From the NCBI GenBank assembly GCA_044359835.1, contig JBIKLM010000001.1:1-51680 (forward strand): DNA of 51,680 nucleotides, given 5' to 3'. Made by a program: the position numbers and the translations under genes. A model generated the notes under the pieces. That model was not told where the DNA came from. It saw only the letters and a list, made by a program, of their open reading frames with translations, and did no database searches. This document shows positions 6,418 to 40,706 of the stretch, one piece after another; position 1 is the first letter of the stretch, and the number at the start of each line of letters is the position of its first letter. The DNA is from Planctomycetota bacterium (GTDB lineage: Bacteria; Planctomycetota; UBA1135; GCA-002686595).

Positions 6418-6456
6418 AGCGTCGCCAGGGGAGCCCTAGCAAAGCCGGGCCCGGCC

Positions 6457-14268: not shown

Positions 14269-14462
14269 GGGCTTGCTCGTCGTCTTCTGAGGCCAGGGGA
14301 CCCGCGGCGGGCGGCGCCGCTTCCATTCCTTTGAGCCCGGCCCGCCGGGCAGGTTCCTGAGCCCGAGGGATCCCGCCGAAACCACCTATGGCGAGGCGGG
14401 CCCTGCGCCGCTCGGGCCGCCGGAGAATCGCGAGCGCGCCCGCCCGGGCCGCGGCCCGAGCC

Positions 14463-17053: not shown

Positions 17054-17431
17054 GGCGCGTCTTGTGTTCGGTGCAGCGCCGGGGCGGGGAGGATCCCCCT
17101 CCAGGTCGCTCCCGGGCTGCCTTCCATTGGAGCCGGCCGTCCCCCGGGGGGTTCCCGGAGCGGCCGACGGCCTCGGCGATGGGAACTAAGTCTCGTTCGC
17201 AGGGGAGTTTACGGATACTGGAGCCGGCCGGGGTCGCGTGCCAGGTGCGGGCCTGTCCAGGCGAGGATTTGGACAGGCTGGCCCCGAGACCCGGGCGGCT
17301 GGGACGGCGGCGCCCGCGGGTTCCGGGCCGGGCGCCGAGCCGCGGCGCGCCACCGGGGCCCACGGGCCAGCGCCTGGAGCCCGGCCCGTCCGAGGGCCTA
17401 CCTTGGGCTCGGCGCTCCGCCGCGCCGCCCT

Positions 17432-18169
17432 GTGCGCCTGCTGACCTACAACATCCACAAGGGCTGGAGCCTGCTCAACCGGCAGTTCGTGCTGGAGCGC
17501 ATGCGGCTCCTGATCCGCGAGGCGGAGGCGGACGTGGTCTTCCTGCAGGAGGTCCAGGGCGAGCACCGCGGCCATGCGCGGAGCCAGCGCGATTGGCCTG
17601 CGGAACCGCAATTCGAATTCCTGGCGGACACGCTCTGGCCGCACTTCGCCTACGGCCGCAACGCGCTCTACGACGACGGCCACCACGGCAATGCGATCCT
17701 GTCGCGCTTTCCCTTCGTGGCCCACGAGAACATCGACGTCTCCAACAGCCGCCTGGAGCGCCGCGGGCTGCTGCACGGCACGATCGCGGCCCCCGGTTGG
17801 CCGGAGCCCCTGCACCTGGTCTGCCTGCACCTCGATCTGTTCGAGCGCGGCCGCCGGCGCCAGGCTGAGCGCCTGTGCGAGCGCGTGGAGCAGCACGTGC
17901 CCGCGGCGGCGCCCCTGGTGATCGCCGGGGACTTCAACGATTGGCGCGGCACCGTCGGCGGCCAGCTCGAGCGCCGCCTCCACTTGGTGGACGCCCACAA
18001 GGCCCTGCACGGCGGGCACGCGCGCACCTTCCCGAGCGCTTTTCCCCTGCTGCGCCTCGATCGCATCTACCTGCGCGGCCTGCGCCCTCGCGCGGCGATC
18101 TGCCCCGACGGCGAGCAGTGGCGTGCGCTCTCCGACCATTGTCCGCTGCTGGCCGAGGTCGAGCCGTGA
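17432..18169 (+). CDS. endonuclease/exonuclease/phosphatase (EEP) family protein, YbhP-like
   Basis: LLTYNIHKG, VVFLQEV, GNAILSRFP, VIAGDFNDW and LSDHCPLLAEV are the canonical EEP motifs. The GTG at 17432 is the nearest in-frame start, so the start is uncertain. The stop overlaps the cls start (GTGA). Confidence 0.7.
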   Translation: MRLLTYNIHKGWSLLNRQFVLERMRLLIREAEADVVFLQEVQGEHRGHARSQRDWPAEPQFEFLADTLWPHFAYGRNALYDDGHHGNAILSRFPFVAHENIDVSNSRLERRGLLHGTIAAPGWPEPLHLVCLHLDLFERGRRRQAERLCERVEQHVPAAAPLVIAGDFNDWRGTVGGQLERRLHLVDAHKALHGGHARTFPSAFPLLRLDRIYLRGLRPRAAICPDGEQWRALSDHCPLLAEVEP

Positions 18170-19658: not shown

Positions 19659-21866
19659 ATGCGCTCGTCTTGCCCCCGAGCGTCCGCCTGGCTCGCCGGC
19701 GCGACGCTGTGCCTGTCCCCGCTCGCGGCCCATGGCGCCGCGCTCCGGTATCCAATTTCCGCTTCGAGTTCGCGCCCGCAGTCAGCGGAAGATCCCGAGC
19801 CGGCGAGGTCCACATGCCGGCTCCGCGGCCAGCTCGTGGATGTCGCCGGACAGCCCTTGGCCGGCGTGGAGGTCGCCGGCGGCGACAAGGCATTCGAGCC
19901 CAACGAGCGGGGCGAGTACGTCTGGGTCTACCAGTCCACGGCCGTTTCCGCCGCCGATGGCCGTTTCGAGCTGACGTTGGAGTCGGTTCCCGAGGGGGAC
20001 GAGCTCGAAATCGTCTTCCGGCTGCCCGGTCTGTTGCCGGCGGAATTGCACCTGCCAACGCGGCTTTCCGGTGGAATCGAGCTCGGCTCGATCCCCCTGC
20101 GCCGCGGGGTGCCTGTGCAGGTCGCGCTGCACGACACCCAAGGCCGGCCGCTGCACGAGGGCTGGACGTTCGAGGTGCCTAGCTTGATGACGCCCGTCAA
20201 GCGCATCGCGGGGGGCGAATTGAAGCACGGGGTGAGCTCCAGCGGATTTTCAGCGGACCTGGGTCCCGACGGCCTGCGGATCGAGGCCATGCGGCCCGGA
20301 ACGAAGCGCTTGCGGCTGGAGCACTTCTCGGGTGCGGGGGTCGAGGTCGAGTTCGAAGTGCCCGAGTGGTCCCCGGAGGTCTCCGCGGTCGAGGTCCAGG
20401 CCGTCTACGACGGTCCCGACCTCAGCGGGCTGATCGCGATCCGCTTTGCGTTGAACGACTTTTTTGACCTTCCGCCGGGCTCGCCCCTTTCGCCCCAGGG
20501 GATCGAGGTCTTCGGCCCGGACGGGCCCCTGCCGCTCACGATCGGCTTCGATCCGGCCACGGCGCGTCCGCTGTCACAGGCCCGCGACGTGCCCGCCCCG
20601 AGCGGTGTCCCGGGTCTGTCGTTCCGGATCGGACCCCAGGAGTCGATCTTCGTGCGCTCCGGCGGGAAACAGCCCATGACGCTGAGCGTCCTCGATCCCC
20701 GCTACATTCCCCTGATGCGCTCGCTCGAGCCCTCCGGGGAGGTCACGGAGATCCGGATCGAAGGCAATTCAAGCCTGATCCTGGAGCTCGTCGATCGGGC
20801 CAGCGGGGAGGCGATCCAAGAAGCCCAGATCGCTCTCGAAGTCGACGGCAGCTTCGAGACGTTCGATTTCCTGGATGCGAGCGATCTTTCAGCCGAGGAT
20901 GGGGGCACCGTGACCCGGCGCGTCCTCCGGGGCCTGCCGCCCGATGCCCTGCGGTTACGCATCCAGGCAGACGGTCACGGTCACCAGAAGTTGGAACTGC
21001 CGGCCGTCGAACCCGGTGGCACCCGCCGGCTGCGCGTGGAACTGGATGGCTCGGTCTGGGCCAGGATCGTGGGTCAGATCGAAGGTCAGGCTCCGCTCCA
21101 ACTGTTCCGTGCGCTTGTGCTCCAGAATTCGCCGGCCTATGTGGTGCCCAATTACCAGATTTTCGAACCGGAGACGATTGAGCCGGGCTTGTTCGAATTG
21201 GACGACCTCTTCTATTGGGAGGGGACCGGATCGATGAGTTTCCGGCTGATCGCCGGGGACCGCATGCTGCGCTTGGCGGGGCCCGTGGAGTTCAATCTGG
21301 CGGAGATCCCGGGCCAAACCTTCGAGCTGCAGCTCGAACCGAGCTGCACCCTGCGCGGAAACCTCGTTTTGCCCGCCGAGCTGCGCCGCGGACGGCTGCC
21401 GCTGCGTTTGACCCGCGATCGCATCCAGGAATCGCTTTCGCTCCAGAACCTGGGCAACCAGCTCTGCCCCCCCGATGGGGATCCGGACCTGTTCCTGGCC
21501 CTGGACGCGCCGAGTTACGAGCTTTCTGGCTTCGCGCCGGACGTGTATCGCCTGCATCCGGCCACGCCGGGCAGCGACCCGCGGGCCGTGCTGGCCGAGG
21601 TCGATCTGTCCGCCGGCGGGGTGCTCCAGCGCGACCTGGATCTCTCGGCCCACGTGCCGGCCTCTCTCGAGGTGCTGTTGCCGCAAGGTCTGCCGGCGCT
21701 CGAGCTGGTGCTGGCCGGGCCTGGCCGGGAGGTGCGCAGCGGCCCTTTCTCCTCGGGCAGCGCCGCCTTCGGCAGCCTGGCGCCCGGCCGCTATCGCGCC
21801 GCGCTGCGCGGCATCGCGCCGACCGGCGCCGGCCTGTGGGAGATCGGGCTGCCGAGCGAGCTGTAG
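19659..21866 (+). CDS. large exported protein with carboxypeptidase-regulatory-like beta-sandwich repeats (paralog of 22329..24386), ended by an in-frame TAG
   Basis: Signal peptide MRSSCPRASAWLAGATLCLSPLAAHGAA. CRLRGQLVDVAGQPLAGVEVA...ADGRFELTL is a CarboxypepD_reg-type unit. It is collinear by eye with the downstream paralog (IPLRRG.PVQ.AL.D..GR, PEWSPEV..V...AVY.GPD, PLPL.IGFDPA.ARP). Confidence 0.75.
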   Translation: MRSSCPRASAWLAGATLCLSPLAAHGAALRYPISASSSRPQSAEDPEPARSTCRLRGQLVDVAGQPLAGVEVAGGDKAFEPNERGEYVWVYQSTAVSAADGRFELTLESVPEGDELEIVFRLPGLLPAELHLPTRLSGGIELGSIPLRRGVPVQVALHDTQGRPLHEGWTFEVPSLMTPVKRIAGGELKHGVSSSGFSADLGPDGLRIEAMRPGTKRLRLEHFSGAGVEVEFEVPEWSPEVSAVEVQAVYDGPDLSGLIAIRFALNDFFDLPPGSPLSPQGIEVFGPDGPLPLTIGFDPATARPLSQARDVPAPSGVPGLSFRIGPQESIFVRSGGKQPMTLSVLDPRYIPLMRSLEPSGEVTEIRIEGNSSLILELVDRASGEAIQEAQIALEVDGSFETFDFLDASDLSAEDGGTVTRRVLRGLPPDALRLRIQADGHGHQKLELPAVEPGGTRRLRVELDGSVWARIVGQIEGQAPLQLFRALVLQNSPAYVVPNYQIFEPETIEPGLFELDDLFYWEGTGSMSFRLIAGDRMLRLAGPVEFNLAEIPGQTFELQLEPSCTLRGNLVLPAELRRGRLPLRLTRDRIQESLSLQNLGNQLCPPDGDPDLFLALDAPSYELSGFAPDVYRLHPATPGSDPRAVLAEVDLSAGGVLQRDLDLSAHVPASLEVLLPQGLPALELVLAGPGREVRSGPFSSGSAAFGSLAPGRYRAALRGIAPTGAGLWEIGLPSEL

Positions 21867-21908
21867 CTCGCGCCTGGCCAGGCTCAGGTCTGGCGCCCGG
21901 AGATCGCC

Positions 21909-22196
21909 ATGACCCGCGGCCGTGTGCGGATCCTGTCCGCGGACGGCGCGCCCCTGCGCGAGGCCGAACTCTGGCTGCGCTTCGATCCGAACCAGGATCC
22001 AGCCAAGCTGATCGAAGAATCCGTGGCGGTCTGCACCGACGCCGAGGGCTGGCTCGACCTGGATCTGCCCGCCGCTCCCTTCCGCCTGTTCCCCCCGGGC
22101 AAGCGGCCCCCCAAGCGCATCGCCGGGCCCTCGCGCTCGCGCTCGGCCGCCCTGGATTGGCCCGCCCTCCAGGGCCGCGAGCTGCGCTTGCCCTGA
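21909..22196 (+). CDS. detached C-terminal domain of the preceding paralog (split-gene fragment)
   Basis: It is in the same frame as 19659..21866, 14 codons after the TAG. GRVRILSADGAPLREAELWL..DP.QDPA......TDAEGWLDLDLPAAPFRLFPPGK.PP aligns without gaps to the last 95 residues of 22329..24386. Confidence 0.5.
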   Translation: MTRGRVRILSADGAPLREAELWLRFDPNQDPAKLIEESVAVCTDAEGWLDLDLPAAPFRLFPPGKRPPKRIAGPSRSRSAALDWPALQGRELRLP

Positions 22197-22328
22197 GCAG
22201 AAAATCGCGATTCCCCCGGGGCCGCGACCGGGCCCCACGAGCCGAGTTCGCCAGCGACCCCCACCCGGTCCATCGGCTTGGCTCTCGTGCTGCTTGCCTG
22301 CTGCCTGGACTCCGAAGAGATCTCCGCC

Positions 22329-24386
22329 ATGAACTCGACCCCTCGCCAACTGCGCGCCCGGATCCAAAGCGCGGTCCTTGTCTGTGCCTGTCTGCTGTTG
22401 GGCGCCCGCGCCGCGCAGCCGTGGGATGCGGAGCCCGATCCGCGGTCGACTCCAACCTGGGGCAGCGCTTCGCAGGACGCGCCGCCCCCTCCGCCCCCGC
22501 CGCCCCTGCCGAGTTCCGCGGCGACCGTGCGCGGCCGCGTGATCGACGAGGGCGGGCAGCCCCTGGCCGATGCACTCATCGAACTCGGACCGCCGGGTTA
22601 CACCAAGCAGGGCGATCTCGATTGGGTCGCGGTCTATGAACCGGGCGCCCGGACAGGGCCCGATGGGCGTTTCGAGTTCAAGCTGGAACTGGACGAACAG
22701 GTGCCGGCCATGCGACCGGCCAGGGCCAAGACCTACAGTCGATGGAGGTACCTGCGGATCTCTGCACCGGGTTTCGTGTCCACCACGCGCTCTCTGTCCG
22801 AACCCATCGACGGGGCCTACGAAGGCGGCGACATCCCGTTGCGGCGCGGCACGCCCGTGCAGCTCGCGCTCGAGGACCCCACCGGCCGGGTGCTGTACAC
22901 CGGCTGCAGCTTCCTGGGTCCTGATCCCTTGGAGCAGGCCGTGAAGCGACTCGACCGCTCCGAAGCCGGCACTGTCCCGCGCCCGAAGACCGGGATCGGC
23001 AGGACGTCGATCGTGGCTCCCGATCCCGTTTTGCCCCTCGGCCGCGAGGGAGTGCGCATCCAGGCCATGGAAGCGGGTCGGCAGCGGCTTCTGGTCAGGC
23101 ATTCCTCCGGCGCCCAGGCGGACCTCGAGCTCGACGTGCCCCCCTGGTCGCCGGAGGTCGGTGTGGTCCAGGCCCGCGCCGTTTACACGGGCCCCGACAC
23201 GGCCGAGCTGCGGGTCGTGGAATTCAGTCTGCTCTCTTCGTTGCCGCTCTCGCCCGCCGCGGCGCAGGCGCCCTCCGGCATCGAAGTGCGCGGACGCGGC
23301 GGCCCGCTGCCGCTGCGGATCGGATTCGATCCGGCCAGCGCCCGCCCGTTCGCGGAGGCGCGCGCCGCGGGACCCGCCCAACCGCCTTCAAGCTTCGATG
23401 GCTCCCCTTCCCATCATCAGCCGATCGAGCGGATCTACGTCCAACACGCCCTGGCCGAACAGCTCGAGCTGATCCTCGACGATCCCCGCTTCCTCCCGGA
23501 GGTCGTGGCGCTGCTTCCCGACGGTCAGGTCACCAAGGTGACCCTGGAAGGCAATAGCACGCTCCTGCTGGAGGTCGTCGAACAGGGCAGCGGGCGAGCG
23601 ATCGCCGACTACACGGTTTGGCGCCGATTGGGCGATTCCCATTCCTATCGGCTCAGCACCATCTCTTCCCCCACCCAGGGAAGCGGCGGCAGTCGTCGGA
23701 TCCTGCGTGGATTGTTGCCGGACCCTGAAACGTTGCGGATCAGCGCCGACGGCTACCTGGACCTGGATATCGAGCTGGCCGCCATAACGCCGGGGGGGCG
23801 GCGCGACCTGCGGGTCGAGCTGGAGCGCGATCTGTCCGGCGAGCCGCCGGCTTCCTTGGAGGTGCTCGCTCCAGAAGGGCTGGCGCCGTTCGAGCTCGTG
23901 CTGTCTGATTCCAAGGGGCGGGTGCGCCGCGGCTCGATCGAAGGGGAGCGGGGCCTGCTTGAGGACCTGATCCCGGGCCGCTATCGGGTCGGCCTGCGGG
24001 CCCTGGGGTCCAACGGCCGGCTGCGCTTCGCGATCGCCTTTCCAGAGGAGCTCCAGTTGGCCCCGGGGGAGGCCCGCGTGTGGCAGCTCGACCTGGCGCT
24101 CCACACCGGGCGGGTGCGTCTGCTGGATGCGGCCGGCCAGCCCCTGCGCCGGGCCCGGCCGTGGCTGCAAGGGGACCCGCGGCAGGATCCCGCGGACGTG
24201 GCCAGGGACCCGGCGCGCCTCGCGACCGACGCCGAAGGCTGGCTCGAGCTGACCCTGCCCGCAGCCACCTTCCGGCTGTTCCCGCCCGGCAAGGCGCCGC
24301 CGGACCGCACCCTGGGCGCCGATTGGGCGCGCACCCTGGCCTTCGATTGGCCCGCCGCGATCGGGACCGACCTGCGGCTGCCTTGA
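22329..24386 (+). CDS. large exported protein with carboxypeptidase-regulatory-like beta-sandwich repeats (intact paralog)
   Basis: The ATG at 22329 gives MNSTPRQLRARIQSAVLVCACLLLGARAAQP (signal peptide). TVRGRVIDEGGQPLADALIEL...PDGRFEFKL follows. The gene has the same architecture as 19659..22196. Confidence 0.75.
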   Translation: MNSTPRQLRARIQSAVLVCACLLLGARAAQPWDAEPDPRSTPTWGSASQDAPPPPPPPPLPSSAATVRGRVIDEGGQPLADALIELGPPGYTKQGDLDWVAVYEPGARTGPDGRFEFKLELDEQVPAMRPARAKTYSRWRYLRISAPGFVSTTRSLSEPIDGAYEGGDIPLRRGTPVQLALEDPTGRVLYTGCSFLGPDPLEQAVKRLDRSEAGTVPRPKTGIGRTSIVAPDPVLPLGREGVRIQAMEAGRQRLLVRHSSGAQADLELDVPPWSPEVGVVQARAVYTGPDTAELRVVEFSLLSSLPLSPAAAQAPSGIEVRGRGGPLPLRIGFDPASARPFAEARAAGPAQPPSSFDGSPSHHQPIERIYVQHALAEQLELILDDPRFLPEVVALLPDGQVTKVTLEGNSTLLLEVVEQGSGRAIADYTVWRRLGDSHSYRLSTISSPTQGSGGSRRILRGLLPDPETLRISADGYLDLDIELAAITPGGRRDLRVELERDLSGEPPASLEVLAPEGLAPFELVLSDSKGRVRRGSIEGERGLLEDLIPGRYRVGLRALGSNGRLRFAIAFPEELQLAPGEARVWQLDLALHTGRVRLLDAAGQPLRRARPWLQGDPRQDPADVARDPARLATDAEGWLELTLPAATFRLFPPGKAPPDRTLGADWARTLAFDWPAAIGTDLRLP

Positions 24387-24590
24387 GCCGGGGCGGGCGT
24401 CGGGTTGGCGCCGGGCCTTGGTCCATCGCGGGGGCTTCGGGACCCTGGCGCGGACAAGCGGAGCGTGGGCTGCCCGCCCCAGGCCCAACCCGACGGCAGG
24501 ACGGCATCTGCGTGGATCCGATCGCCAGCGCCCGGGAACCAGCCCGCTATGCTGGCATCCAAGGAGTTGCGCCCAGTGCGCCCGCCGCCC

Positions 24591-24968
24591 ATGGAAAAGA
24601 AATTGAGCGTCTACGACCCGGCCCTCTGCTGCTCCACCGGGGTCTGCGGGCCCGCGGTCGATCCCGAGCTGGCCCGTGTCGCCGCCGACCTGGCCTGGTT
24701 GGCCGATCAGGGGGTGGCCGTGGAGCGCTACAACCTCTCCCAGCAGCCGGCCGCTTTCGCGCTGAATTCCCTGGTGCGCGGTGCTTTGGAGCGCGGCAAT
24801 CAGGTGCTGCCGCTGGTCGTCGCGGACGGGCGCATCGTCGCGGAAGGGCATTACCCATCTCGGGAGACTTTAGCGGCGCTGTGTGGGCTGGTGCTGCGCC
24901 CCGCAGCGACCCAGCCGACCCCGGCCAACGCCTGCCGCCCGCAGGCCAGCGGCGGCTCCTGCTGCTGA
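24591..24968 (+). CDS. arsD: arsenical resistance metallochaperone/repressor ArsD
   Basis: MEKKLSVYDPALCCSTGVCGP reproduces the ArsD N-terminus with the Cys12/Cys13/Cys18-equivalent triad. A thioredoxin-like remainder and a C-terminal GGSCC follow. An in-frame GTG at 24576, preceded by AAGGAG, is an alternative start. Confidence 0.85.
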   Translation: MEKKLSVYDPALCCSTGVCGPAVDPELARVAADLAWLADQGVAVERYNLSQQPAAFALNSLVRGALERGNQVLPLVVADGRIVAEGHYPSRETLAALCGLVLRPAATQPTPANACRPQASGGSCC

Positions 24969-25204
24969 TCTGCGTAGAAGGCATCGTCTCGGGCCGCGCC
25001 CGAGCCATCCGATCAGGCCTCCCGCAGGAACTCGCCTGGCGACTCTGCGGGCATCGGGCCGAGAGCGAAGTGCCGGCCGGCGCATCGTCCAAAGCCTCGA
25101 CCGAAGACCGGCGCATGCAGCTTGTCGACGGCCCAAGGCGCGATGTGGGCCTGCTGCGCTAGAGGCGGCTCGCAGACGCGGCTTGGCTTTGGCGCCCGAT
25201 TCCC

Positions 25205-27085
25205 ATGTCCGCTCAACGACCCGCTCCCATGCCAAAGCCCAGTCCGATCGTTTTCCTAGAGGATCCGCCGCGCATCCTGCTCTTCACCGGCAAAGGTGGG
25301 GTCGGCAAGACCAGCGTGGCCTGCGCCACCGCGCTGCGTCTGGTGAGCCTGGGTCGGCGGGTGCTGCTGGTCAGCACCGATCCGGCTTCCAACCTGGACG
25401 AGGTGCTCGGGGTGGCCTTGGGTGCGAGCCCCACGCCCGTACCCGGGGCACCTGGCCTGTCCGCACTGAACATCGACCCGGTGGCGGCCGCGGCCGCCTA
25501 TCGTGAGCGCTTGGTAGGGCCCTACCGGGCCCTGCTGCCTGCGGCGGCTGTGCGCAGCATCGAAGAGCAGCTCTCCGGCGCCTGCACCGTCGAAATCGCG
25601 GCCTTCGACGAGTTCTCCAAGCTGCTCGGCGATCCCGCGGCCAGCGCGGACTTCGATCATGTCGTGTTCGACACGGCACCGACCGGCCACACCCTGCGGC
25701 TCCTGGAGCTGCCGGCCGCTTGGAGCGGGTTCCTAGGCAGCGGCGGTGGCAGCGCCTCTTGCCTTGGGCCCCTGGCGGGGCTCGAGGCCCAGCGTGGACT
25801 GTACGCCTCGAGCCGTGCCGCCCTCGAGGATCGAGCACGCACGCTCTTGGTCCTCGTGGCCCGCGCTGAATCCGCGGCTTTGCGCGAGGCAGAGCGCACG
25901 CGCGCCGAGCTCGCCGCGCTGGGCATCGGCAACCTGGCGCTGGTGATCAACGGACGCTTTCTGGCCGGGGAACCGAGCGATCCCGTGGCGGCAGCCTTCC
26001 AGCGGCGCGACGAGACGGCGCTGGCAGCCTTGCCCAGGGGGCTGGCGGCTCTCCCGCGGCTCGATCTGCCGCTGCTGCCCTTCGGACTGGTGGGTCTGCA
26101 GGCCCTGGAACGGCTCCTGCCGGACGGCGTCGGGTTGTCTGTGCCTGCCCTCGACATGCGCGCCGAAAAACCCGGAGCCGAGGCTCTTGCCGCGCGGAAT
26201 CCCTTGACGGGCGCCGAAGTCCCCGCGACCCAGGATCTCCCCCCGGGGCTCGAGAGCCTGCTGCCCGAACTCGAACGGCCCGGCCATGGCGCGATCTTGA
26301 CCATGGGCAAGGGCGGGGTCGGCAAGACCACCGTGGCGGTGACTCTGGCGCTCGAATTGGCGCGCCGCGGGCATCGGGTGCACCTGACGACCACCGATCC
26401 CGCCGCTCATGTGAGCGCTGCCCTGATCGCGGCGGCGGGCGAGCGATTGCCGCCGGGCCTGACTGTCGATCGCATCGATCCGGCGGCGGAGGTCGCCGCC
26501 TACAGCGCCGAGGTCTTGGCCAAGGCCGGGGCCGCTCTGGACCCCGCGGGTCGAGCGCTGCTCGAAGAGGATCTGCGCAGCCCCTGCACCGAGGAGATCG
26601 CGGTATTCCAGGCTTTCGCTCGCCGGGTCGACCGCGGCCGCGACGCTTTCGTGGTGATCGACACCGCCCCGACGGGGCACAGCCTGCTCTTGCTGGACGC
26701 GGCCGAGAGCTACCACCGCGAGGTCGAACGATCGAGCGGAGCGGTGCCCGAGGAGGTCCGCCGCCTGCTGCCGCGCCTGCGCGACCCAGAATTCACGCGC
26801 ATCCTGCTGATCACGCTCCCCGAGGCCACGCCGGTGCACGAGGCCGTGCACCTGCAGTCAGACCTCGGACGCGCCGGAATCCGCCCCTTTGCCTGGGTCA
26901 TCAACCAAAGCCTCAGCCCGCTGAGATTGCGGGATCCGCTGCTGCTGCGCCGCCGCGCCCACGAAGCGCGCTACATCGCCGAGGTGCTGGCCCAGGGATC
27001 GAGGGTTGCCCTGTTGCCTTGGTCCGCAGCGGAGCGAGCGCCCGCTTCCCAGGTCGTTTCTGAGGCTTCCCGCACGATTCCCTAG
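25205..27085 (+). CDS. arsA: arsenite-stimulated ATPase ArsA (two homologous halves)
   Basis: P-loops FTGKGGVGKTS and GKGGVGKTT. Signature motifs DTAPTGHTLRLL and DTAPTGHSLLLL. The three As(III)-ligand cysteines have the expected context (GACTVEIAAFDEF, SASCLGPLAGLE, SPCTEEIAVFQAF). The ATG at 25229 is an alternative start. Confidence 0.9.
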   Translation: MSAQRPAPMPKPSPIVFLEDPPRILLFTGKGGVGKTSVACATALRLVSLGRRVLLVSTDPASNLDEVLGVALGASPTPVPGAPGLSALNIDPVAAAAAYRERLVGPYRALLPAAAVRSIEEQLSGACTVEIAAFDEFSKLLGDPAASADFDHVVFDTAPTGHTLRLLELPAAWSGFLGSGGGSASCLGPLAGLEAQRGLYASSRAALEDRARTLLVLVARAESAALREAERTRAELAALGIGNLALVINGRFLAGEPSDPVAAAFQRRDETALAALPRGLAALPRLDLPLLPFGLVGLQALERLLPDGVGLSVPALDMRAEKPGAEALAARNPLTGAEVPATQDLPPGLESLLPELERPGHGAILTMGKGGVGKTTVAVTLALELARRGHRVHLTTTDPAAHVSAALIAAAGERLPPGLTVDRIDPAAEVAAYSAEVLAKAGAALDPAGRALLEEDLRSPCTEEIAVFQAFARRVDRGRDAFVVIDTAPTGHSLLLLDAAESYHREVERSSGAVPEEVRRLLPRLRDPEFTRILLITLPEATPVHEAVHLQSDLGRAGIRPFAWVINQSLSPLRLRDPLLLRRRAHEARYIAEVLAQGSRVALLPWSAAERAPASQVVSEASRTIP

Positions 27086-27344: not shown

Positions 27345-28703
27345 ATGCGCACCTTGATCGCTGCATCCGTGCTGGTTGGTTTCGCGCCCCTGGCGGGCGC
27401 GTGGCAAGAGGTCGATCGTTCGAAAGCCCGCGAGGAGCGCCTGCGCTATCTCGCCGAGCAGGCCCTCGAGCAACAGGACCTATCGGGCCTGGCCTGGGTT
27501 GCCTTGGTGGGCACGGAGGAGCTCGCTGGCGCGGCTCTGGGCCATTCCGACAGGGGCCCGCTGACCGCCGACACCGCGCTGCCGGCGGCGTCCTTGGCCG
27601 AGCTGCTGTTCGCCGCGGCGGCGCTGCAGGCGGCCGAGGCCAAGGGCATTCAGCCGGGGACCGAGCTCTCCGCGCTGCTGCCGGAGCGCAAGCTCGAGCT
27701 GCCCGGCGTGAGCCTGCACGGTTTGCTGGCCCACACCTCCGGGCTGGCGTTGGTGCCGGCTTCCCTGCCCATCGAAGCGGGCGCCCCCGCCGAAGAGGGC
27801 CAGCCGCCGGTCGATCCGCCCTGGCTGACCTGGCTGCGCAGCGCCTCGCCCGCGGCGGCGCCGCAGAGCTGCTACGGCTGGACCAACGCGGATCTGCTGC
27901 TGCTCGATCTGTGGATGCAGAGCGCGGCCGGCCAGGGTCTGGCGGCCCAGGCGGAAGCCAAGCTGTTCCCGGCCCTCGGCTGGAAGGACAAGCGCCTGAT
28001 CGGGGCCCTGGCGGGCACCTGGATGGAACTGGCCCAGGACCAGGGCCTCGGGCGCCTCGAAAGCGTCGAACTGCCGGCGGAACTGGCCGGCGTCGAGCTG
28101 GAGCTGTCCGCGCGCGAGCTGGCCGCGGGTTTGCGGGCCCTGCTGGGCGGCGAGCTGCTGGACGCCGAGACCAGCGAGCGGCTGACCGCCAACGTGCACC
28201 TGCCGAACGGCCAGCGCACCGGTCGCGGCCTGGGCCTGGCCCACACGCGGCTGGCCGAACTGGACGGCCTGCTGGTGGCCGGCGCCGCCCAGGGCACCAA
28301 CCTGCGCGCCGTGCACTACCCGAGCCTGGACTTGACCATCGCGCTTTTGGCGCCGGCCCGGCCCCAGTCCCTCGCGGCCCTCGAGCGCGCCTTGACCGTG
28401 GCGCTCTTCGATCTGCCCCAGCCCGAGCGCACCGACCTGCCGGTCTCCAGCGAAGAACTCGCGCGTCTGGTGGGGGAGTATCAGATCGGCTGCGACAGCC
28501 TGCTGCTCTCGGTCCAGGAGGGCCGCCTGCGCCTGACCGGCGCGGATCTCGACCAGCCCCTCGCCTACCAGGGCGGCGGCCGGTTCCTGGCCCAGACCGG
28601 CGCCGACCTGACGGTCGAGTTCGAGCCCGGCGCGGAGGGCCCCGCCCAGCAATTCGTGCTCTCGATCGAAGGCCAACAATCGATCGCCCGTCGATTCCGC
28701 TGA
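27345..28703 (+). CDS. beta-lactamase/transpeptidase-fold (serine hydrolase family) exported protein with a degenerate active site
   Basis: GGAGGA SD-like motif 5 nt upstream. Signal peptide MRTLIAASVLVGFAPLAGA. VSLHGLLAHTSGLA matches the family block LLTHTSGL. At the expected SxxK position the sequence reads ASLAE. Confidence 0.7.
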   Translation: MRTLIAASVLVGFAPLAGAWQEVDRSKAREERLRYLAEQALEQQDLSGLAWVALVGTEELAGAALGHSDRGPLTADTALPAASLAELLFAAAALQAAEAKGIQPGTELSALLPERKLELPGVSLHGLLAHTSGLALVPASLPIEAGAPAEEGQPPVDPPWLTWLRSASPAAAPQSCYGWTNADLLLLDLWMQSAAGQGLAAQAEAKLFPALGWKDKRLIGALAGTWMELAQDQGLGRLESVELPAELAGVELELSARELAAGLRALLGGELLDAETSERLTANVHLPNGQRTGRGLGLAHTRLAELDGLLVAGAAQGTNLRAVHYPSLDLTIALLAPARPQSLAALERALTVALFDLPQPERTDLPVSSEELARLVGEYQIGCDSLLLSVQEGRLRLTGADLDQPLAYQGGGRFLAQTGADLTVEFEPGAEGPAQQFVLSIEGQQSIARRFR

Positions 28704-28836
28704 CAGGCTGAGAAAAAATCGACTCGGGCTGCGCCCGAGCAGTCAGACCAGCCTGTCAGCATGCCTTTGGGCCGCCATCCGGCGGCCGCAGAGGCTGGGA
28801 TCGTCGCTGCGCGCCGATTTTTTCCCAGCCTCTGAG
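28701..28836 (+). repeat. structured intergenic repeat, copy A (long imperfect palindrome starting at the upstream gene's stop codon)
   Basis: It shares the core GAGAAAAAATCGACTCGGGCTGCGCCCGAGC...GCCTTTGGGCCGCC.TCC.GCGGCCGCA.AGGCTGGGATCG with 44130..44250 (83 of 98 positions identical by hand alignment). Its left half is shared with 38607..38745. There is a 7-bp hairpin at 28723-28739. The outer arms GGCTGAGAAAAAATCG (28706-28721) and CGATTTTTTCCCAGCC (28815-28830) are complementary except for one position. Confidence 0.8.
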
Positions 28837-29191
28837 CCCTCCCGCCCGACTGCGAGCGGCGCGTCAGGCCGTCCGGGGGGCGCTGAGCGCGCCTTCCGGG
28901 CGGCGGAAAGCAAGCAAACCTCCCCCCGGGCTCGGGTGGGCCTGCCCGTCCGCCGCCCTGGATCGGCGCTCCGGCGGGGGGGCCTCGGGGCTGAGGCTGA
29001 AGGATTAATTGCCTAATGGCGGGCCGGGAAGCCCCCCTGGAGAGCGCCTGCCCACCCAAGCAGGACGCTTTTATTACAGTTTTGCACCTCCGGGGCCACT
29101 TCCCAGGCCCCGGCTCCCCTTGCCCAGGGAAGCCCCCCCCGAGGGACGCGCTGCCCACGCGATCCCCCCCGAAAGACCGGCAGGCCGCGTC

Positions 29192-35599: not shown

Positions 35600-35636
35600 G
35601 ACTCTGGGATCGGCCACTGGCGCCGATCCCAGAGTC
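35600..35636 (-). terminator. perfect 15-bp stem / 7-nt loop hairpin, candidate terminator of the DUF4382 gene
   Basis: GACTCTGGGATCGGC (35600-35614), loop CACTGGC, then GCCGATCCCAGAGTC (35622-35636). It lies about 90 nt downstream of the minus-strand stop at 35725. Only a short CTTTGTG tract follows on the minus strand. Confidence 0.4.
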
Positions 35637-35724
35637 TGCGCCCGCGCGCAGGGCGGGCGCAAGGCCCGCGGACAGTCGGGTGCTGCGACTCAGGAGCAGC
35701 CCGAGTCGATCGCTTCTGTGCCGA

Positions 35725-37548
35725 TCAGTTGACGACGACCGTCAGGATCTTGGCCGCCAGGGTGTTGGTCTGGGCGGTGTAGGGGCCGATGGCCCCCAGG
35801 TCGTAGAGGTTGGCGCCCTGGGCCAGCTTGATGGAGAGGGCCACGTCGAGGGCGGCCAGGGTGCTGAAGACCTGGAACGAGCCGGTGACCTTGTCGACCA
35901 GGTTGAACAGGCCCGTGGCGTCCTGGGAGGTGATCGTGGGGGTCGGGCTGCTGGGCAGGTTTTGGATACCCACGAAGCCCTTGTCGACGATCGCCAGCTC
36001 GAACAGGTTGGGGGCCCCGCTGAGGCTCACCTGCAGCTGGGTCGGGTCCGAGGTCAGCGTTGCGACCAGGCCACCCGGCCGGTTCTTGATCAGCAGCAGC
36101 GAAGGCGCCAGCTCGCGGTTGATCACCGCCGTGGCCTCGAAGTCCGCGCCCGCGGAGTCGATCGCCGTGAACCAGCCCAGCAGTTCGACCGCCGTGCCGT
36201 TGGTGATGCCCAGCCCGTCCGCGGCCGTGCCCACCTGAGCCACGAGCGCATCGGGATCGGTGGCGGGCAAACCGCTCTCGTTCCAGCTGAACAGCCCTTG
36301 CAGCAGCAGGCCGATGCGCACCAGATCGACGGTCAGCTGGCCGCCCGTCGGGGCGGCGGCGGCGAAGCCGAGGGCCCGCGTGGGCTGCAGGCGCACCACC
36401 GCATCGGTTGCGGTGGCATCCACGTCGGTCCCGATCAGGTCGCCGAAGATGCGCACGCGCTGGCCGATGTTGATGTCGTCGGCGTCGTAGGGCGTGGCCG
36501 AACCGCGGCGTAGGACCTTGGTTTGGGCGAAGGCCACGTCGACGGTGAAAAACGTATCGAACTGGAACTGATCGTGGGTCGTGTTGTTGCTGTGGCCGCG
36601 CACCACCAGCGTCGGATTGCTGCCCGCGCCGCCGATGCGGCCGACCACATGGCCCTCGATGATGTCCTGGCCGCCGTTGTAGGTGCCTGTGCCGGCCTCC
36701 ACGTAGACCACGGTCAGGTTGGGCAGCGACGGGGCGATGGCGCCGTAGGTCTGCACCCAGGTGCCCGCGGGCAAGCCGGCCAGGGCCTCGAGCCCGGGAT
36801 TGCCCGTGTAGGGCACGCCATTGACCTGGTACACGGTCTGGGGCAGCACCGAGACCGTGGTGCTGCCATAGGACACCCCTTGCAGCGTCTGCAGGTCGAG
36901 CTGGAAGGTGCCTGCCGCGGCGTCGACGGATTGGACCTCGCCCAGGGCGATCAGCTCCTTGGGACTGGACGGATCGACCCCCAGGACCAGCTTCGGCTCG
37001 ACGCGGACGCTGTTGCCCAGGCTGTCGACCTGCACGGATTGATTCAGGTCGAAATCGAGCTCGATCAGCTTGTGGGCTCCCGCGCCCATGGAGAACGGCG
37101 CCTGCAGGGTGATGTCGAAGGGCACCGGGCCGGTCAGCGGATCGCCGTCTTCATCCAGCAAGGACGCCGCGGAGCTCTGGCCCACCAGGAACACCTCCGC
37201 ATCGCTGAAGTCGAAGGTCACCTGGGCCCCCGTGTAGAGGCCCAGCGGCACCGGGCTCGTGCCGAGCACCTGGGACAGGTCCTGGAGTTCGGTCAGGTCC
37301 ACGCGCACCGGCTGGGTCAGCAGGCTGACCAGGGCGCCGGAGGCGCGCTCGAGCTGGATCGCTTCGATTTCGACGAAAAAGTTGGCTACTTGGTCAGCGG
37401 CCGCGTCGGTCAGGGCGAAGGTGACCGCGCCCTGGCTGTCGCCATCGCTGCTGCTTCCGCTGCAGGCGCACAGGCCGAACAGCGGCAAGGTGGCGAGCCA
37501 AGGAAGCAGCAGGGCGCGCTCGAGGCGCGAGTCAACAGGTCGGTGCAT
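35725..37548 (-). CDS. DUF4382-domain lipoprotein
   Basis: MHRPVDSRLERALLLPWLATLPLFGLCACSG (lipobox-like LCAC). AVTFALTDAAADQVANFFVEIEAIQLERASG..VSLLTQPVRVDLTELQD...LGLYTGAQVTFDF matches the DUF4382 pattern (LTDAP...V.V.I..I.L....G....V.VDL..L.....G.Y..I.L). Confidence 0.75.
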   Translation of the reverse strand: MHRPVDSRLERALLLPWLATLPLFGLCACSGSSSDGDSQGAVTFALTDAAADQVANFFVEIEAIQLERASGALVSLLTQPVRVDLTELQDLSQVLGTSPVPLGLYTGAQVTFDFSDAEVFLVGQSSAASLLDEDGDPLTGPVPFDITLQAPFSMGAGAHKLIELDFDLNQSVQVDSLGNSVRVEPKLVLGVDPSSPKELIALGEVQSVDAAAGTFQLDLQTLQGVSYGSTTVSVLPQTVYQVNGVPYTGNPGLEALAGLPAGTWVQTYGAIAPSLPNLTVVYVEAGTGTYNGGQDIIEGHVVGRIGGAGSNPTLVVRGHSNNTTHDQFQFDTFFTVDVAFAQTKVLRRGSATPYDADDINIGQRVRIFGDLIGTDVDATATDAVVRLQPTRALGFAAAAPTGGQLTVDLVRIGLLLQGLFSWNESGLPATDPDALVAQVGTAADGLGITNGTAVELLGWFTAIDSAGADFEATAVINRELAPSLLLIKNRPGGLVATLTSDPTQLQVSLSGAPNLFELAIVDKGFVGIQNLPSSPTPTITSQDATGLFNLVDKVTGSFQVFSTLAALDVALSIKLAQGANLYDLGAIGPYTAQTNTLAAKILTVVVN

Positions 37549-37844
37549 GGGTGAGAGAGCGTGGGTTGCGTCGGCCAGCGGGCCGAGAGGCTTTGTTCGG
37601 GGGATCCCAAGGAGCCTTATAGGGGCCTTCTCCGGAGTCCTTGCCTTCCGGGCGAGCCGCCCGCGGCTGCTCCCAGACCCGGCAACGGCGTCCCGCTGGG
37701 TCCCGCCCGTTCCGGCCCTCGAACCGGCCGGGTCCGCTGCGGTTCCGCGGGAGATCCGCCGGGGCCGCGGCCAGGCAGACTTTTCCCGGTCCCGCTCGGG
37801 GGCCGCTTTACACTGGGTTCACAGCGCCCGATCCAAGCCCAGCC

Positions 37845-38609
37845 ATGCAAAGCAAAGCAGCCAACGTGGAGGCCTACCTGGCCGAACAGACCCCCGAGCG
37901 CCGCCAGACCCTCGAAGCGGTGCGTCGCCTGATGCGGCAGAGCCTGGATGCGCGCATCGCGGAGGGCATGTCCTACGGGATGATCGGCTACTTCGTGCCC
38001 CACGCGATCTTTCCGGCGGGCTATCACTGCGACCCGAAGCAGCCGCTGCCCTTTGCCGGTCTGGCCGCGCAGAAGGGCCATTTTTCGCTTTATCTGATGG
38101 GCCTGTACCTGGACCCGGAGCTCACGGCGCGCTTCGAGGCCCGCTGGCAGGCCAGCGGCAAGAAGCTCGATATGGGCAAGGCCTGCGTGCGCTTCAAGCG
38201 GCTCGAGGACCTGGCCAGCGAGGCCATCGCCGAGACCCTGCGCGGCATGGACCTCGATACCTACCTGGCCACCTACCAGGCCCGTTATGGCTCCACCAAA
38301 GCGGGCGCCAAGGCCCTGGCGAAGAAGAACGCGTCGGCGGGCGCCGCTTCGCGGAGCCGCGGCACGGCCGCCCCGTCCAAGCCGGCCGCCGCAGCCGCCC
38401 CCGCGGCCAAGCGCGCCTCGCGCGGCGCCCAGGCAACGGCCGCGGCGCGGGGCCAGGCGTCGGCGCCCGCCAAGGGGGCCGCCCGAACCCGGCCGGCCGG
38501 AAAGGCCCAGCGCTCAGCCAAGCCCAGCCCCGTGGAGAAACCCAAGCCCGCCAGACAGGCCAAGACCGGCGCCAAGACCGGGCCCAAGCGCCGCTCCGCG
38601 GGCTCCTGA
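37845..38609 (+). CDS. DUF1801 (YdhG-like) domain protein with a roughly 100-aa Ala/Lys/Pro/Arg-rich basic C-terminal tail
   Basis: ATG at 37845. VEAYLAEQTPERRQTLEAVRRLMRQSL..RIAEGMSYGMIGY...GLAAQKGHFSLYLMG is typical of DUF1801. The tail reads AKKNASAGAASRSRG...KPKPARQAKTGAKTGPKRRSAGS. Confidence 0.75.
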   Translation: MQSKAANVEAYLAEQTPERRQTLEAVRRLMRQSLDARIAEGMSYGMIGYFVPHAIFPAGYHCDPKQPLPFAGLAAQKGHFSLYLMGLYLDPELTARFEARWQASGKKLDMGKACVRFKRLEDLASEAIAETLRGMDLDTYLATYQARYGSTKAGAKALAKKNASAGAASRSRGTAAPSKPAAAAAPAAKRASRGAQATAAARGQASAPAKGAARTRPAGKAQRSAKPSPVEKPKPARQAKTGAKTGPKRRSAGS

Positions 38610-38745
38610 CCGGCGGAGAAGAGATCGACTCGGGCTGCGCCCGAGCCACCGGACGAGCCCGACCGATGCCTCTGGGCCGCCGTCCGGCGCCGGGGAGCGC
38701 CGGGGGCCCTGCGGGCGGCCAACGGGGGGCCGAAAAAGCAGCAGA
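38607..38745 (+). repeat. structured intergenic repeat, copy B (right half degenerate)
   Basis: It starts at the TGA of the DUF1801 gene. CTGACCGGCGGAGAAGAGATCGACTCGGGCTGCGCCCGAGCC...GATGCCTCTGGGCCGCCGTCCGGCGCC aligns with copies A and C. An identical 7-bp hairpin lies at 38629-38645. Confidence 0.7.
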
Positions 38746-40450: not shown

Positions 40451-40692
40451 TGGTCCGCGCCCTGCCTGCCACGCCGCGCGCGCGCCGTCTGCTGCTGTTG
40501 GCCCTGCTGGGGCTGGCGGGCCTGGCGCCCGCCCAGGTCTCCGGCGTCGGGCCGCCCAAGCCCAAGGCCGAAGGCCAGCTCAGCGCCCGCGACAAGCTCA
40601 AGCGCAGCGCCCCGCCGCCGGTGATCGAAGGCGGCAACGGCCCCGTGACCAGCCGGGGGCAGAAGCAGGAAGAGGTCATTCCCAAGCCGTGA
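40450..40692 (+). CDS. module 1 gene C: 80-aa exported Pro/Lys-rich protein
   Basis: The ATG shares one nucleotide with the upstream TGA (TGATG). MVRALPATPRARRLLLLALLGLAGLAPAQV is a signal peptide. The mature part is low-complexity. Gene C of module 2 has the same length and position. Confidence 0.55.
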   Translation: MVRALPATPRARRLLLLALLGLAGLAPAQVSGVGPPKPKAEGQLSARDKLKRSAPPPVIEGGNGPVTSRGQKQEEVIPKP

Positions 40693-40706
40693 GGGAGCGC
40701 CGTTCC

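Follow-up and report, generated by a model that had tools for sequence, protein, structure and literature searches.

A 132-nt repeat family placed on TGA stop codons in a freshwater Planctomycetota lineage, probably a non-autonomous mobile element

We analysed a 51.7-kb stretch of Planctomycetota DNA (51,680 nucleotides; hereafter the window) in which copies of a structured repeat lie at the ends of genes. The repeat belongs to a family with hundreds of amplified copies in a lineage of freshwater Planctomycetota. It is probably a non-autonomous mobile element, resembling a MITE or a REP mosaic, whose insertion at (Y)TGA(G) is strand-specific and restores the stop codon. The window contained six copies (five to six, counting the degenerate copy F), each starting on the TGA stop of a co-oriented gene (Table 1). 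The four copies named in the original prediction (A, B, C and F) were all present at their places, each on its host's TGA; the count itself was too low, as copies at 24966 (+) and 35727 (-) had been missed. Also overlooked were the second terminal TGA, the tandem arrays with a 132-nt period and the absence of the element at orthologous sites. Among the identities first suggested, a REP/MITE-like element gained support, because hundreds more copies exist and they are tied to gene ends and strand.

Table 1 Copies of the repeat in the window, their host genes and the parts of copy A.
Feature	Position	Strand	Host gene (stop codon)	Basis and remarks
Copy A, full length, near the family consensus	28701-28835	+	Beta-lactamase-family gene, 27345-28703 (left TGA of copy A)	nhmmer 156 bits, model 2-137; covariance model 170.8 bits
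Left TGA of copy A	28701-28703	+		
Body of copy A	28704-28832	+		
Right TGA of copy A	28833-28835	+		
Left terminal inverted repeat, CAGGCTGAGAAAAAATCG	28704-28721	+		Read from the sequence of copy A
Stem-loop 1, copy A	28699-28760	+		MFE fold; outer stem GCTGACAGGCTG / CAGCCTGTCAGC
Inner hairpin of stem-loop 1, CTCGGGC-TGC-GCCCGAG	28723-28739	+		Enclosed by the outer stem
Stem-loop 2, GGCCGCC-ATCC-GGCGGCC	28770-28787	+		Fold; most highly repeated segment of the unit
Stem-loop 3	28789-28834	+		Fold; holds the right inverted repeat, a small hairpin (ATCGTCGC-TGC-GCGCCGAT) and T6
Copy B	38607-38700	+	DUF1801 gene, 37641-38609 (TGA 38607-38609)	nhmmer 44 bits, model 2-86; covariance model 75.3 bits; only stem-loops 1 and 2 recognisable
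Copy C, right end decayed	44130-44250	+	CarboxypepD_reg-domain gene, 40218-44132, 1,304-residue product (TGA 44130-44132)	nhmmer 86.7 bits, model 2-123
Copy D	24966-25026	+	arsD, 24405-24968	nhmmer 21 bits; repeat family D1; only stem-loop 1 left
Copy E	35604-35727	-	Minus-strand DUF4382 gene, 35725-37548 (stop 35727-35725)	nhmmer 42.5 bits; inverted repeat I1
Copy F (probable member), old, degenerate	4368-4430	+	Beta-helix gene, 2778-4370 (TGA 4368-4370)	

The window copies differed in their state of preservation. Copies A and C, first aligned by hand at 83/98 identical positions, were 82% identical over 117 nt. Copy B was frame-shifted relative to copy A by an indel, which places its conservation at the nucleotide level, and copy D lay within the arsD-arsA spacer. 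Copy E tracked its minus-strand host gene, its neighbours being on the plus strand. Copy F was missed by the nhmmer profile search and scored 26 bits with a covariance model whose training set included it. It had 53/75 positions in common with copy E (z about 3.7 against shuffles), and its sequence suggests that it is probably a genuine member of the family. The host proteins upstream of the window copies were mutually unrelated by Pfam. The initial observation that minus-strand genes never converge on a copy is incorrect for the one at 4368, since a convergent gene has its end at 4437.

The repeat unit was 132 nt long, with terminal inverted repeats of ~18 nt and three GC-rich stem-loops, and closed with a second TGA. 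The left junction read TGA followed by CAGGCTG, and the right end of the unit was CCTC-TGA. The left inverted repeat, CAGGCTGAGAAAAAATCG, was equal to the reverse complement of the right end, GAGGCTGGGAAAAAATCG, at 16 of 18 positions, as in MITEs. Unit length ranged from 132 to 139 nt among copies, within the ~50-500 bp of non-coding MITE units, and inter-copy indels were not multiples of three. The A-run, the second GC palindrome (GGCCGCC-ATCC-GGCGGCC) and the right-arm T-run reported from the first reading were all seen as described, the T-run arm being absent from four of the six window copies. Copy A was predicted to fold into three stem-loops at -83.3 kcal/mol (z = -6.9). The predicted outer stem of stem-loop 1 pairs GCTGACAGGCTG with CAGCCTGTCAGC, so that the stop codon is itself base-paired. 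Across the copies, pairing was retained in 97.7% of cells in the inner hairpin of stem-loop 1, in 76.5% in its outer stem and in 90.5% in stem-loop 2. Compensatory changes in stem-loop 3 were found in copy E, where double changes retained the stem (AGACTCTGGGATCGGC pairs with GCCGATCCCAGAGTCT), and in the copy at locus L039. The hairpin pattern was observed 12 times in the window against 2.7 expected, a count that none of 100 shuffles reached.

In all window copies the UGA was followed by a constant 19 nt and then by a 17-nt hairpin, which fitted CTCGGGC-NNC-GCCCGAG in the four copies named first, and in copy A the frame was open from TGA to TGA, the 132 nt corresponding to 44 codons. Both features would be expected of a recoding signal, that is, a bacterial SECIS or read-through element adding a 44-residue extension to the upstream proteins. 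This interpretation is close to refuted. The spacing between UGA and hairpin ranged from 19 to 27 nt in copies outside the window, unit lengths varied by steps that would not keep a frame, and copy B was out of frame relative to copy A with its nucleotides still conserved. With a GC content of 72%, open frames of such length are to be expected anyway. The proteins encoded upstream are unrelated to one another, and their element-free orthologues stop at the same codon. Nor is the hairpin known to show the loop and bulge characteristics of established SECIS elements.

The metagenome depth on the element was ~100 to 1,400 times the flanking depth. Over copy A it was ~1,000 to 17,600, against ~12 in the flanks, with the maximum (~17,600) over stem-loop 2 and with sharp edges (rise at 28695-28703, fall at 28836-28847). 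Judged by these depth ratios, roughly 1-3% of the genome would consist of the element. The family data set comprised 61 insertion loci with 74 units and nine tandem arrays, and a single Planctomycetota MAG accounted for 34 of the 41 loci found in the genome scan. The tandem arrays had a 132-nt period, with neighbouring units sharing one TGA, and joints that go back by 132 nt were present in the metagenome data at copy A. A related species (79% amino-acid identity) also carried the family, at other loci and with its own sequence subfamily, and none of 72,556 plasmids matched the unit in a blastn search. Many copies were abruptly truncated. Truncation in the style of a retro-element, with the 5' end intact and the 3' end lost, was considered and rejected as ascertainment bias: the apparent trend arose because the first scan matched the left hairpin only, and left-truncated copies were present (L021, L036 and L061).

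Imperfect palindromes of 60-135 nt that start at the stops of same-strand genes recall integron attC sites, which close gene cassettes and often have the stop codon inside them. That the copies are attC sites is, however, exceedingly improbable. They were dispersed among conserved syntenic housekeeping genes, including the gene for the 1,304-residue protein and the intact arsD-arsA operon, and the tandem arrays had no gene between units. The element ends carried no RYYYAAC or GTTRRRY core sites, and no integrase was found in the window.

In 41 of the 54 evaluable loci the element started precisely at the TGA stop of an ORF that was long, co-oriented and high in GC3, and the number rose to 44 when three borderline cases were added. 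No copy stood in the reverse orientation at TGA, as none of the 54 loci was flanked by TCA. The window contained 84 non-stop intergenic TGAs against 24 TGA stops. Since TGA accounts for 24 of the 27 stops in the window, its constant use carries little weight, and a pyrimidine before TGA was common at unoccupied stops too; the joint regularity of TGA and a preceding pyrimidine was therefore dropped as strong evidence of a target. The base 3' of the right-end TGA was G in 13 of 17 solo copies, compared with 8 of 18 unoccupied stops (p = 0.008), and three of the four empty sites had Y-TGA-G. Two off-stop copies carried the same non-TGA triplet on both sides (CGA/CGA at L072 and TGG/TGG at L057). 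Off-stop copies were mostly co-oriented with the upstream gene, which hints at an orientation preference beyond TGA.

Comparison with relatives at 79% and 83% amino-acid identity indicated that the syntenic orthologues end at the same native stop with the element absent. Element-free orthologous ends were found for the beta-lactamase-like gene, arsD and the DUF4382 gene, which is the presence/absence pattern of a MITE. The arsD-arsA spacer was 111 nt and element-free in the relative L042, against 236 nt here. In an RNA contig of a relative that is ~93% identical, unrelated sequence without the element followed directly after the TGA. The pattern of an empty copy A allele had no match in a collection of metagenome contigs (ENA contigs), a miss of little weight because JGI contigs from the window itself seem to be missing from that collection. 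Nor did any close relative yield an empty allele whose downstream flank could be aligned, and among DNA runs over 20 kb of the window no contig skipped copies B to E. TGA was present on both sides of the unit. The right TGA also pairs inside stem-loop 3 and could thus belong to the element itself.

The G-U wobble in the first hairpin of copy C had been taken as a sign of RNA function in the sense orientation. This argument did not hold for the family: the stems of 44 copies contained 96 G-U cells and 92 A-C cells (p = 0.83), and, as A-C cells are G-U on the opposite strand, there was no strand asymmetry. Covariation, which the original prediction had put forward as a check, gave a divided answer. 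The covariation score was above that of shuffles (0.143 vs 0.099; none of 500 shuffles equalled it), but the counts of double changes were no better than those of slid controls, and RNAalifold kept no stem but the almost unchanging first hairpin, at a covariation term of -0.06. Old copies, too, preserved the first hairpin and stem-loop 2 well. The lack of a G-U excess, the weak covariation and the truncated or decayed copies together argue against a selected sense-strand RNA; the conserved hairpins and some compensatory changes may nevertheless reflect a structural constraint, either from transposition or from a host function.

No Rfam family matched the window at gathering thresholds, and a permissive search returned only sub-threshold hairpin matches of 12-25 bits. 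The repeat was contained in assembled metatranscriptome contigs from the relative that is ~93% identical, which establishes its presence in RNA only and not the position of transcript ends. With no Rfam match and only this passive presence in RNA, nothing supported the sRNA that had been listed among the first options. On the plus strand, the small hairpin followed by U6 folded weakly (-7.8 kcal/mol) and occurred in full-length copies only, copies B, C, D and E being without it. On the minus strand, a stronger hairpin was followed by UCGAUUUUUU (-13.6 kcal/mol), and a terminator scanner flagged the minus-strand hairpin of copies A and B, with a 4-nt spacer before the T6. Terminator-like sites overall were not enriched (9 found vs 6.9 expected).

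These features bear on whether the repeat is a 3'-UTR RNA module selected by the host, serving as a terminator, a stabiliser of mRNA 3' ends or a modulator of translation termination and kept for its activity in the sense orientation. Such a module would account for a start fixed at the stop codon with a hairpin 19 nt downstream in the gene's orientation, for the hairpin with U6 on the plus strand and that with UCGAUUUUUU on the minus strand, for the first hairpin remaining intact in the old copies B and D, and for the occurrence of the element in metatranscriptome contigs. There is also a precedent in SPRITE, a terminator-like MITE enriched at the 3' ends of CDSs (PMC3049150). We nonetheless consider a host-selected module unlikely. 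Sense-strand G-U pairs did not exceed A-C and RNAalifold found negligible covariation; the orthologous genes of relatives manage without the element; copy D sits inside the arsD-arsA operon; the T-run arm is missing from most window copies; and the canonical terminator geometry points antisense, with no excess of terminator-like sites. Arrays of identical units in tandem have no obvious RNA rationale. SPRITE itself resembles the present element in its MITE-like form, its A-run and T-run ends, its long stem and its enrichment near CDS 3' ends, where it is suspected to be tolerated or co-opted since elsewhere it would block transcription (PMC3049150). Unlike the present element, it is AT-rich, has ~30 copies and no reported defined target or stop-codon junction, and its distribution mirrors the overall coding bias (~63% leading strand) and is not fixed relative to the adjacent gene.

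Under the favoured explanation of a mobile element, integration occurs at the trinucleotide TGA in one orientation relative to the TGA strand, as the insertion loci show, and probably in the context Y-TGA-G. An insertion that hits a stop codon leaves this codon and the entire protein intact, and is therefore nearly neutral. Selection would presumably purge insertions at the ~550 out-of-frame coding TGAs and in promoter or 5'-UTR DNA, and this purge would leave survivors that start on the stop codon and follow the gene's orientation. Re-insertion at the TGA flanking a resident copy generates the arrays that are seen, with their 132-nt period and single shared TGA. Inserted copies then decay with no detectable folding constraint on either strand, although some constraint may exist. 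Any terminator or 3'-UTR effect would be a by-product or a later co-option.

The mobilising enzyme would be supplied in trans, and could be either a transposase producing a 3-bp TGA duplication or an HUH single-strand transposase inserting 3' of TGA. Pfam searches of 30 window ORFs identified no transposase or integrase, and the window held no autonomous parent with the same ends. In ~470 kb of related DNA, a fuzzy search found no solo terminal repeats, and tblastn found no homologues of IS200 TnpA or RAYT, a weak negative because the query sequences were approximate. A further point against the favoured explanation is that classical inverted-repeat transposons seldom keep a strictly fixed orientation towards a target of 3 bp.

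As a mechanism only, single-stranded DNA transposition by an HUH tyrosine transposase (IS200/IS605 or RAYT type), without a true target duplication, is possible, if doubtful. The enzyme would cut 3' of (C)TGA both in the left flank and at the terminus of the element itself. This would explain the absolute orientation relative to the target, the identity of the flanking motif with the last bases of the element, the subterminal hairpins, the arrays with one common TGA and the complementarity of the flanking CTGAC to an internal GTCAG. Precedents are tagged REPs that supply the TAG stop of their neighbours, and the REP families and tyrosine transposases flanked by inverted repeats that were reported in a planctomycete (PMC3733652). 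The ends of the present element are, however, true terminal inverted repeats (16/18), the CGA/CGA and TGG/TGG triplets of off-stop copies resemble a 3-bp target duplication, the GTAG/CGTC tag is absent, and no Y1 transposase was found in the DNA searched with approximate queries, again a weak negative. IS200/IS605 elements insert 3' of a fixed 4-5-nt motif in one orientation and have subterminal hairpins, as the present family does, and they do not depend on target duplication, which may hold for it as well. They and their palindrome-associated derivatives are without terminal inverted repeats, unlike the 132-nt element, in which two copies suggest a 3-bp duplication and with which no TnpA or TnpB gene is associated.

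A more speculative reading, which we think rather improbable, is that the element homes to stop codons as a "safe harbour" by strand-specific read-out of its target. Pairing of the flanking (G)CTGAC with the internal GTCAG(C), similar to an IS200/IS605 guide, could be one such read-out. The element would then be a very small transposon, moved by a class of enzyme with no established link to inverted-repeat MITEs, and when complete it might in addition provide the host with terminators that work in both directions.

Among known repeats, the bacterial MITEs (Correia/NEMIS of Neisseria, RUP of S. pneumoniae, ERIC) share with the family short non-coding units of ~100-170 nt, terminal inverted repeats, short identical flank sequences, long hairpins and tens to hundreds of dispersed copies, as well as confinement to one lineage and presence or absence at orthologous sites. 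They differ in that their target is TA, whereas here it is TGA, with the insertion orientation locked to the target and hence to the host gene; about three quarters of the loci begin exactly on a stop codon, and there is no known insertion sequence from which the element derives. Stop codons and orientation go unmentioned in a 2024 review of prokaryotic MITEs (PMC10969869). REP, BIME and REPIN sequences are likewise GC-rich extragenic palindromes arranged in mosaics downstream of genes. Unlike REPs and REPINs, the 132-nt unit has three different hairpins and terminal inverted repeats and bears neither the GTAG nor the CGTC tag: ATCGNC, with N variable, precedes the first hairpin, and CGTC was confined to copy D and stem-loop 3. 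It also differs from GTAG-tagged REPs in that the stop is TGA and is the host's own native stop, and no RAYT was found in the DNA searched.

The mycobacterial MIRU are short tandem intergenic repeats oriented with the flanking genes, and their ends overlap stop and start codons. They carry short ORFs for translational coupling and are without the inverted repeats and hairpin architecture of the 132-nt element. Group IIB1 introns of groEL colonise the stop codon, leave the host protein unchanged and form tandem double insertions (PMC12584367). The present family is similar in its colonisation of stop codons with unchanged host proteins and in its tandem insertions, but the groEL introns are large ribozymes with a reverse transcriptase and a single target gene, whereas the element here is 132 nt long and occupies the stops of many unrelated genes.

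The family has consequences for the study of this lineage. Several contigs begin or end at a copy of the 132-nt repeat, and this, together with its high abundance, indicates that it probably breaks short-read assemblies of the lake lineage. It gives hundreds of genes structured 3' UTRs, and it can send searches for sRNAs, terminators or riboswitches astray. Its insertions could be dated directly from the 20-year Lake Mendota metagenome series. That insertion is tied to TGA and to a single orientation leads us to expect an unusual mode of target recognition, potentially useful for directed integration. The family represents a clean natural case of selfish DNA that has reached a very high number of copies in a compact genome of 72% GC, succeeding by landing on the single trinucleotide per gene where insertion is cost-free.

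The repeat family of the original prediction is real. At each of the four sites named there, the TGA of a same-strand ORF is followed by 19 nt with an A-rich run and then by the hairpin CTCGGGC-NNC-GCCCGAG; copies A to C have a second GC palindrome 3′ of this first hairpin. Copies A and C, previously aligned by hand (83/98), were 82% identical over 117 nt. A repeat search of the window recovered the family together with two extra copies (D and E), and the hairpin motif occurred 12 times against 2.7 expected, a count reached in 0/100 shuffles. Based on GC3-based gene calling and Pfam, the genes upstream of the copies are real and mutually unrelated. The suspected degenerate copy F agrees with copy E at 53/75 positions (z about 3.7) and is probably an old relic of the family. 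The spacer of an arsenic-resistance gene pair holds the decayed copy D, which retains stem-loop 1 alone; loss of its T-run arm would, speculatively, fit selection against a terminator within the operon. The window also contains several large paralogous CarboxypepD_reg genes, and in an adjacent two of them repeats lie exactly 2,190 nt apart (e.g. 22035-22166 / 24225-24356, 73% identity), a spacing that points to tandem gene duplication.

Positions of the repeat copies and associated features, in window coordinates unless a contig or locus from another genome or metagenome (L-number) is named
Feature	Position	Strand	Upstream gene or description
Copy A	28701-28835		Beta-lactamase family
Copy A, stem-loop 1			GCTGACAGGCTG (stop codon included) paired with CAGCCTGTCAGC; encloses conserved hairpin
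Copy A, stem-loop 2	28767-28784		GGCCGCC-ATCC-GGCGGCC
Copy A, stem-loop 3			CAGAGGCTGGGA paired with TCCCAGCCTCTG; encloses small hairpin and T6
Copy A, second TGA	28833-28835		End of unit
Copy B	38607		DUF1801
Copy C	44130		CarboxypepD_reg protein, 1,304 residues
Copy D	24966	+	ArsD; copy sits between arsD and arsA
Copy E	35727-35604	-	DUF4382
Copy F	4368		Beta-helix protein
arsD-arsA pair	24405-27085		Arsenic resistance
CarboxypepD_reg genes	19659-24386, 40218-44132, 46589-48550		Paralogous
Adjacent CarboxypepD_reg genes	19659-21866, 22278-24386		Repeats 2,190 nt apart
Related-species arrays	L064 9773-10107; L057 11655-11964; L069 993-1204; L060 3712-3955		TGG/CGG shared triplets
Left-end duplication	L068 2545-2580 (same in L071)		TGACCGGTTGTTGAGAAC twice
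Head-to-head copies	L040 2202-2388		Overlapping: 2293-2202 (-), 2234-2388 (+)

The full unit, defined from copies outside the window with copy A as the best example within it, is 132 nt long, begins directly after the stop codon and ends with a second TGA. Its terminal inverted repeats (left, CAGGCTGAGAAAAAATCG; right, CGATTTTTTCCCAGCCTC) match at 16/18 positions. Folding of the copy A strand gives three stem-loops (-83.3 kcal/mol, z = -6.9), and the opposite strand folds almost as stably. Conservation of the unit is not due to coding, because an indel in copy B shifts the frame relative to copy A with the nucleotides still conserved, and because unit length and TGA-to-hairpin distance vary in steps other than multiples of three. 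Between the host TGA and its own terminal one, copy A is open for exactly 44 codons, and tandem arrays keep the frame; since indels among the copies are not multiples of three, this open frame is probably an effect of the 72% GC content.

The beta-lactamase-like gene has syntenic orthologues in the contigs L046 (83% amino acid identity) and L042 (79%), with the same C-terminal residues and native TGA. Directly past this TGA the orthologues continue into unrelated sequence (...TTCCGCTGAGCTG... and ...TTTCGCTGAATTC...), and relative to them the window carries 132 extra bases. The arsD-arsA spacer measures 236 nt in the window versus 111 nt in L042, and the orthologues of arsD and of the DUF4382 gene also stop at the native stop without the element. 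A metatranscriptome contig of a ~93% identical relative departs from the window sequence exactly after 28703, and a search with the element HMM across about 62 kb from the syntenic relative gave no matches. The family is common to two related species at differing insertion sites, individual insertions not being shared, a pattern that is the mark of a mobile element.

A one-genome-per-species scan with the hairpin pattern returned at least 41 loci. Among the matches listed (41), 34 came from a single Lake Mendota Planctomycetota MAG (JBILNK01), confirming that further copies exist, and the remaining 7 were chance matches within unrelated genomes. Lake Mendota metagenomes were also the source of contigs encoding the window's own protein. 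Across four lake metagenomes, counting copies at least 90% similar, depth at copy A was 7–12 in the flanks, about 1,000 at the element ends, about 8,000 at the first hairpin and about 17,600 at stem-loop 2, ratios that pool every sampled organism with such a copy and thus give an upper bound per genome. The depth edges were sharp (28695-28703 and 28836-28847), and many metagenome joints stepped back exactly 132 nt, the mark of tandem arrays. Hundreds of copies per genome are likewise implied by the window density of 5–6 copies per 51.7 kb. Summed depth at stem-loop 2 was about double that over the remainder of the unit; this excess may reflect its presence in other repeat types or many half-copies, or short collapsed contigs may have produced it artefactually. 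Scanning metagenome contigs for the stem-loop 2 motif gave 19 loci, all in the syntenic relative's assemblies (ENA ERZ10661xx), and missed JGI Lake Mendota contigs (e.g. L047) carrying the exact motif; the window's source is apparently outside this collection, so negative scans of metagenome contigs weigh little. The relative's copies form a distinct subfamily at other loci, with ends TGACAGGTTGAG... and ...CCCAGGCTGTGA. No match to the unit was found among plasmid sequences.

Merging adjacent units into arrays and dropping duplicate contigs gave 61 independent loci with 74 units and 9 tandem arrays, of which 54 were evaluable (4 ran off the locus and 3 were without a left end). For 41 of the 54, the start coincides exactly with a TGA stop, in each case that of a long ORF in the same orientation and with coding-type GC3; 3 further loci (L007, L011 and L068) very likely also start at stops. 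At eight loci the junction is without a TGA, yet most of these lie 7–123 nt downstream of a co-oriented stop. No copy among the 54 loci was flanked by TCA, so none had inserted at a TGA in reverse. Copy E lies on the minus strand like its gene, among plus-strand neighbours, and orientation therefore follows the strand of the gene, not the region. At L068, an 18-nt left-end tandem duplication including the TGA lies between host stop and unit and could be the footprint of abortive or repeated insertion. The overlapping pair at L040 may be a nested insertion or an HMM shadow of the palindromic unit.

The constant TGA is weak target evidence alone, since TGA ends 24/27 of all called genes in the window (TAG 3, TAA 0) and a pyrimidine, found before the stop in most window genes, is common before TGA at element-free stops too. 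The window holds 84 intergenic TGAs that are not stops (42 on each strand) versus 24 TGA stops, and insertion at any intergenic TGA would place only about 22% on stops. If insertions survived solely in a zone that begins at the stop codon and extends about 30 nt past it, where sense-strand TGA density is 0.0057 per nt, each gene would offer about 0.89 stop targets versus about 0.17 non-stop targets in sense and about 0.17 in antisense. This tolerance model predicts 72–84% on stops (observed, 76–81%), and we infer that it fits the placement better than insertion at any intergenic TGA.

G follows the right-end TGA in 13/17 solo units versus 8/18 unoccupied stops (p = 0.008), and 3/4 empty orthologous sites read Y-TGA-G. 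Insertion may involve a simple 3-bp TGA target duplication, which would produce the pattern seen at two off-stop copies with identical non-TGA triplets on both sides (CGA/CGA in L072, TGG/TGG in L057). However, orientation is absolute, the right TG pairs inside stem-loop 3, and the flanking CTGAC is complementary to an internal GTCAG. These three features speak against a simple duplication and fit an HUH single-strand mechanism in which each end is cleaved 3′ of (C)TGA; either model may hold. At internal junctions of tandem arrays the triplet drifts to TGG or CGG instead of TGA, as would be predicted in the absence of selection for a stop codon; in the related-species arrays showing this, the first unit still begins at a TGA stop.

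Selection on a transcribed RNA had been offered as another explanation, with a G-U wobble in the first hairpin taken to indicate the sense strand. In a sequence-only alignment of 44 copies, covariation support for a three-stem model was mixed: 80% of cells paired versus 33–40% with slid partners, and the score (0.143) exceeded shuffled (0.099; 0/500 as high) and slid (0.06–0.075) controls, but double changes were no better than in slid controls and RNAalifold retained no stem other than the first hairpin, which is nearly invariant (covariation term, -0.06). The wobble argument failed its decisive test, as stem cells comprised 96 G-U and 92 A-C (p = 0.83) and sense-only pairing transitions are thus no commoner than antisense-only ones. 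Neither wobble count nor covariation in this alignment gave evidence for a selected sense RNA. A terminator scan of the window showed no overall enrichment (9 sites versus 6.9 expected) and within the copies flagged nothing except the first hairpin of A and B, read on the minus strand; on the plus strand, the hairpin followed by U6 is weak (-7.8 kcal/mol). Abrupt truncation affects many young copies, and the old copies B, D, E and F are without the T-run arm. RNA contigs, which as assemblies cannot show 3′ ends, carry the repeat. Full-length copies may plausibly act as terminators or stabilisers, an effect that is not needed to explain the placement pattern.

The element matched no Rfam family, failed the comparison with SECIS and integron attC, and does not carry the tag of REPs proper. 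Its structural and population features are those of a MITE, in line with the REP/MITE-like option of the original prediction. IS200/IS605-type elements, which insert on the 3′ side of a fixed motif and in a single orientation, are one precedent. IS5/IS1031 and PIF/Harbinger make 3-bp TNA/TWA duplications in a CTNAG-like context which, as generally described, resembles Y-TGA-G. The closest precedents are REPs with a GTAG tag, in which the end of the repeat frequently provides the TAG stop of an adjacent ORF (PMC3733652). Further precedents are SPRITE, a terminator-like element with a proposed terminator/stabiliser effect (PMC3049150), and the group II introns that have settled at the stop codon of groEL (PMC12584367). 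Stop codons and orientation go unmentioned in a 2024 review of MITEs in prokaryotes (PMC10969869). The family is very abundant, MITE/REP-like and previously undescribed, and we consider it probable that its stop-codon start and strand bias arose through integration that is TGA-specific and locked in orientation, with purifying selection acting afterwards.
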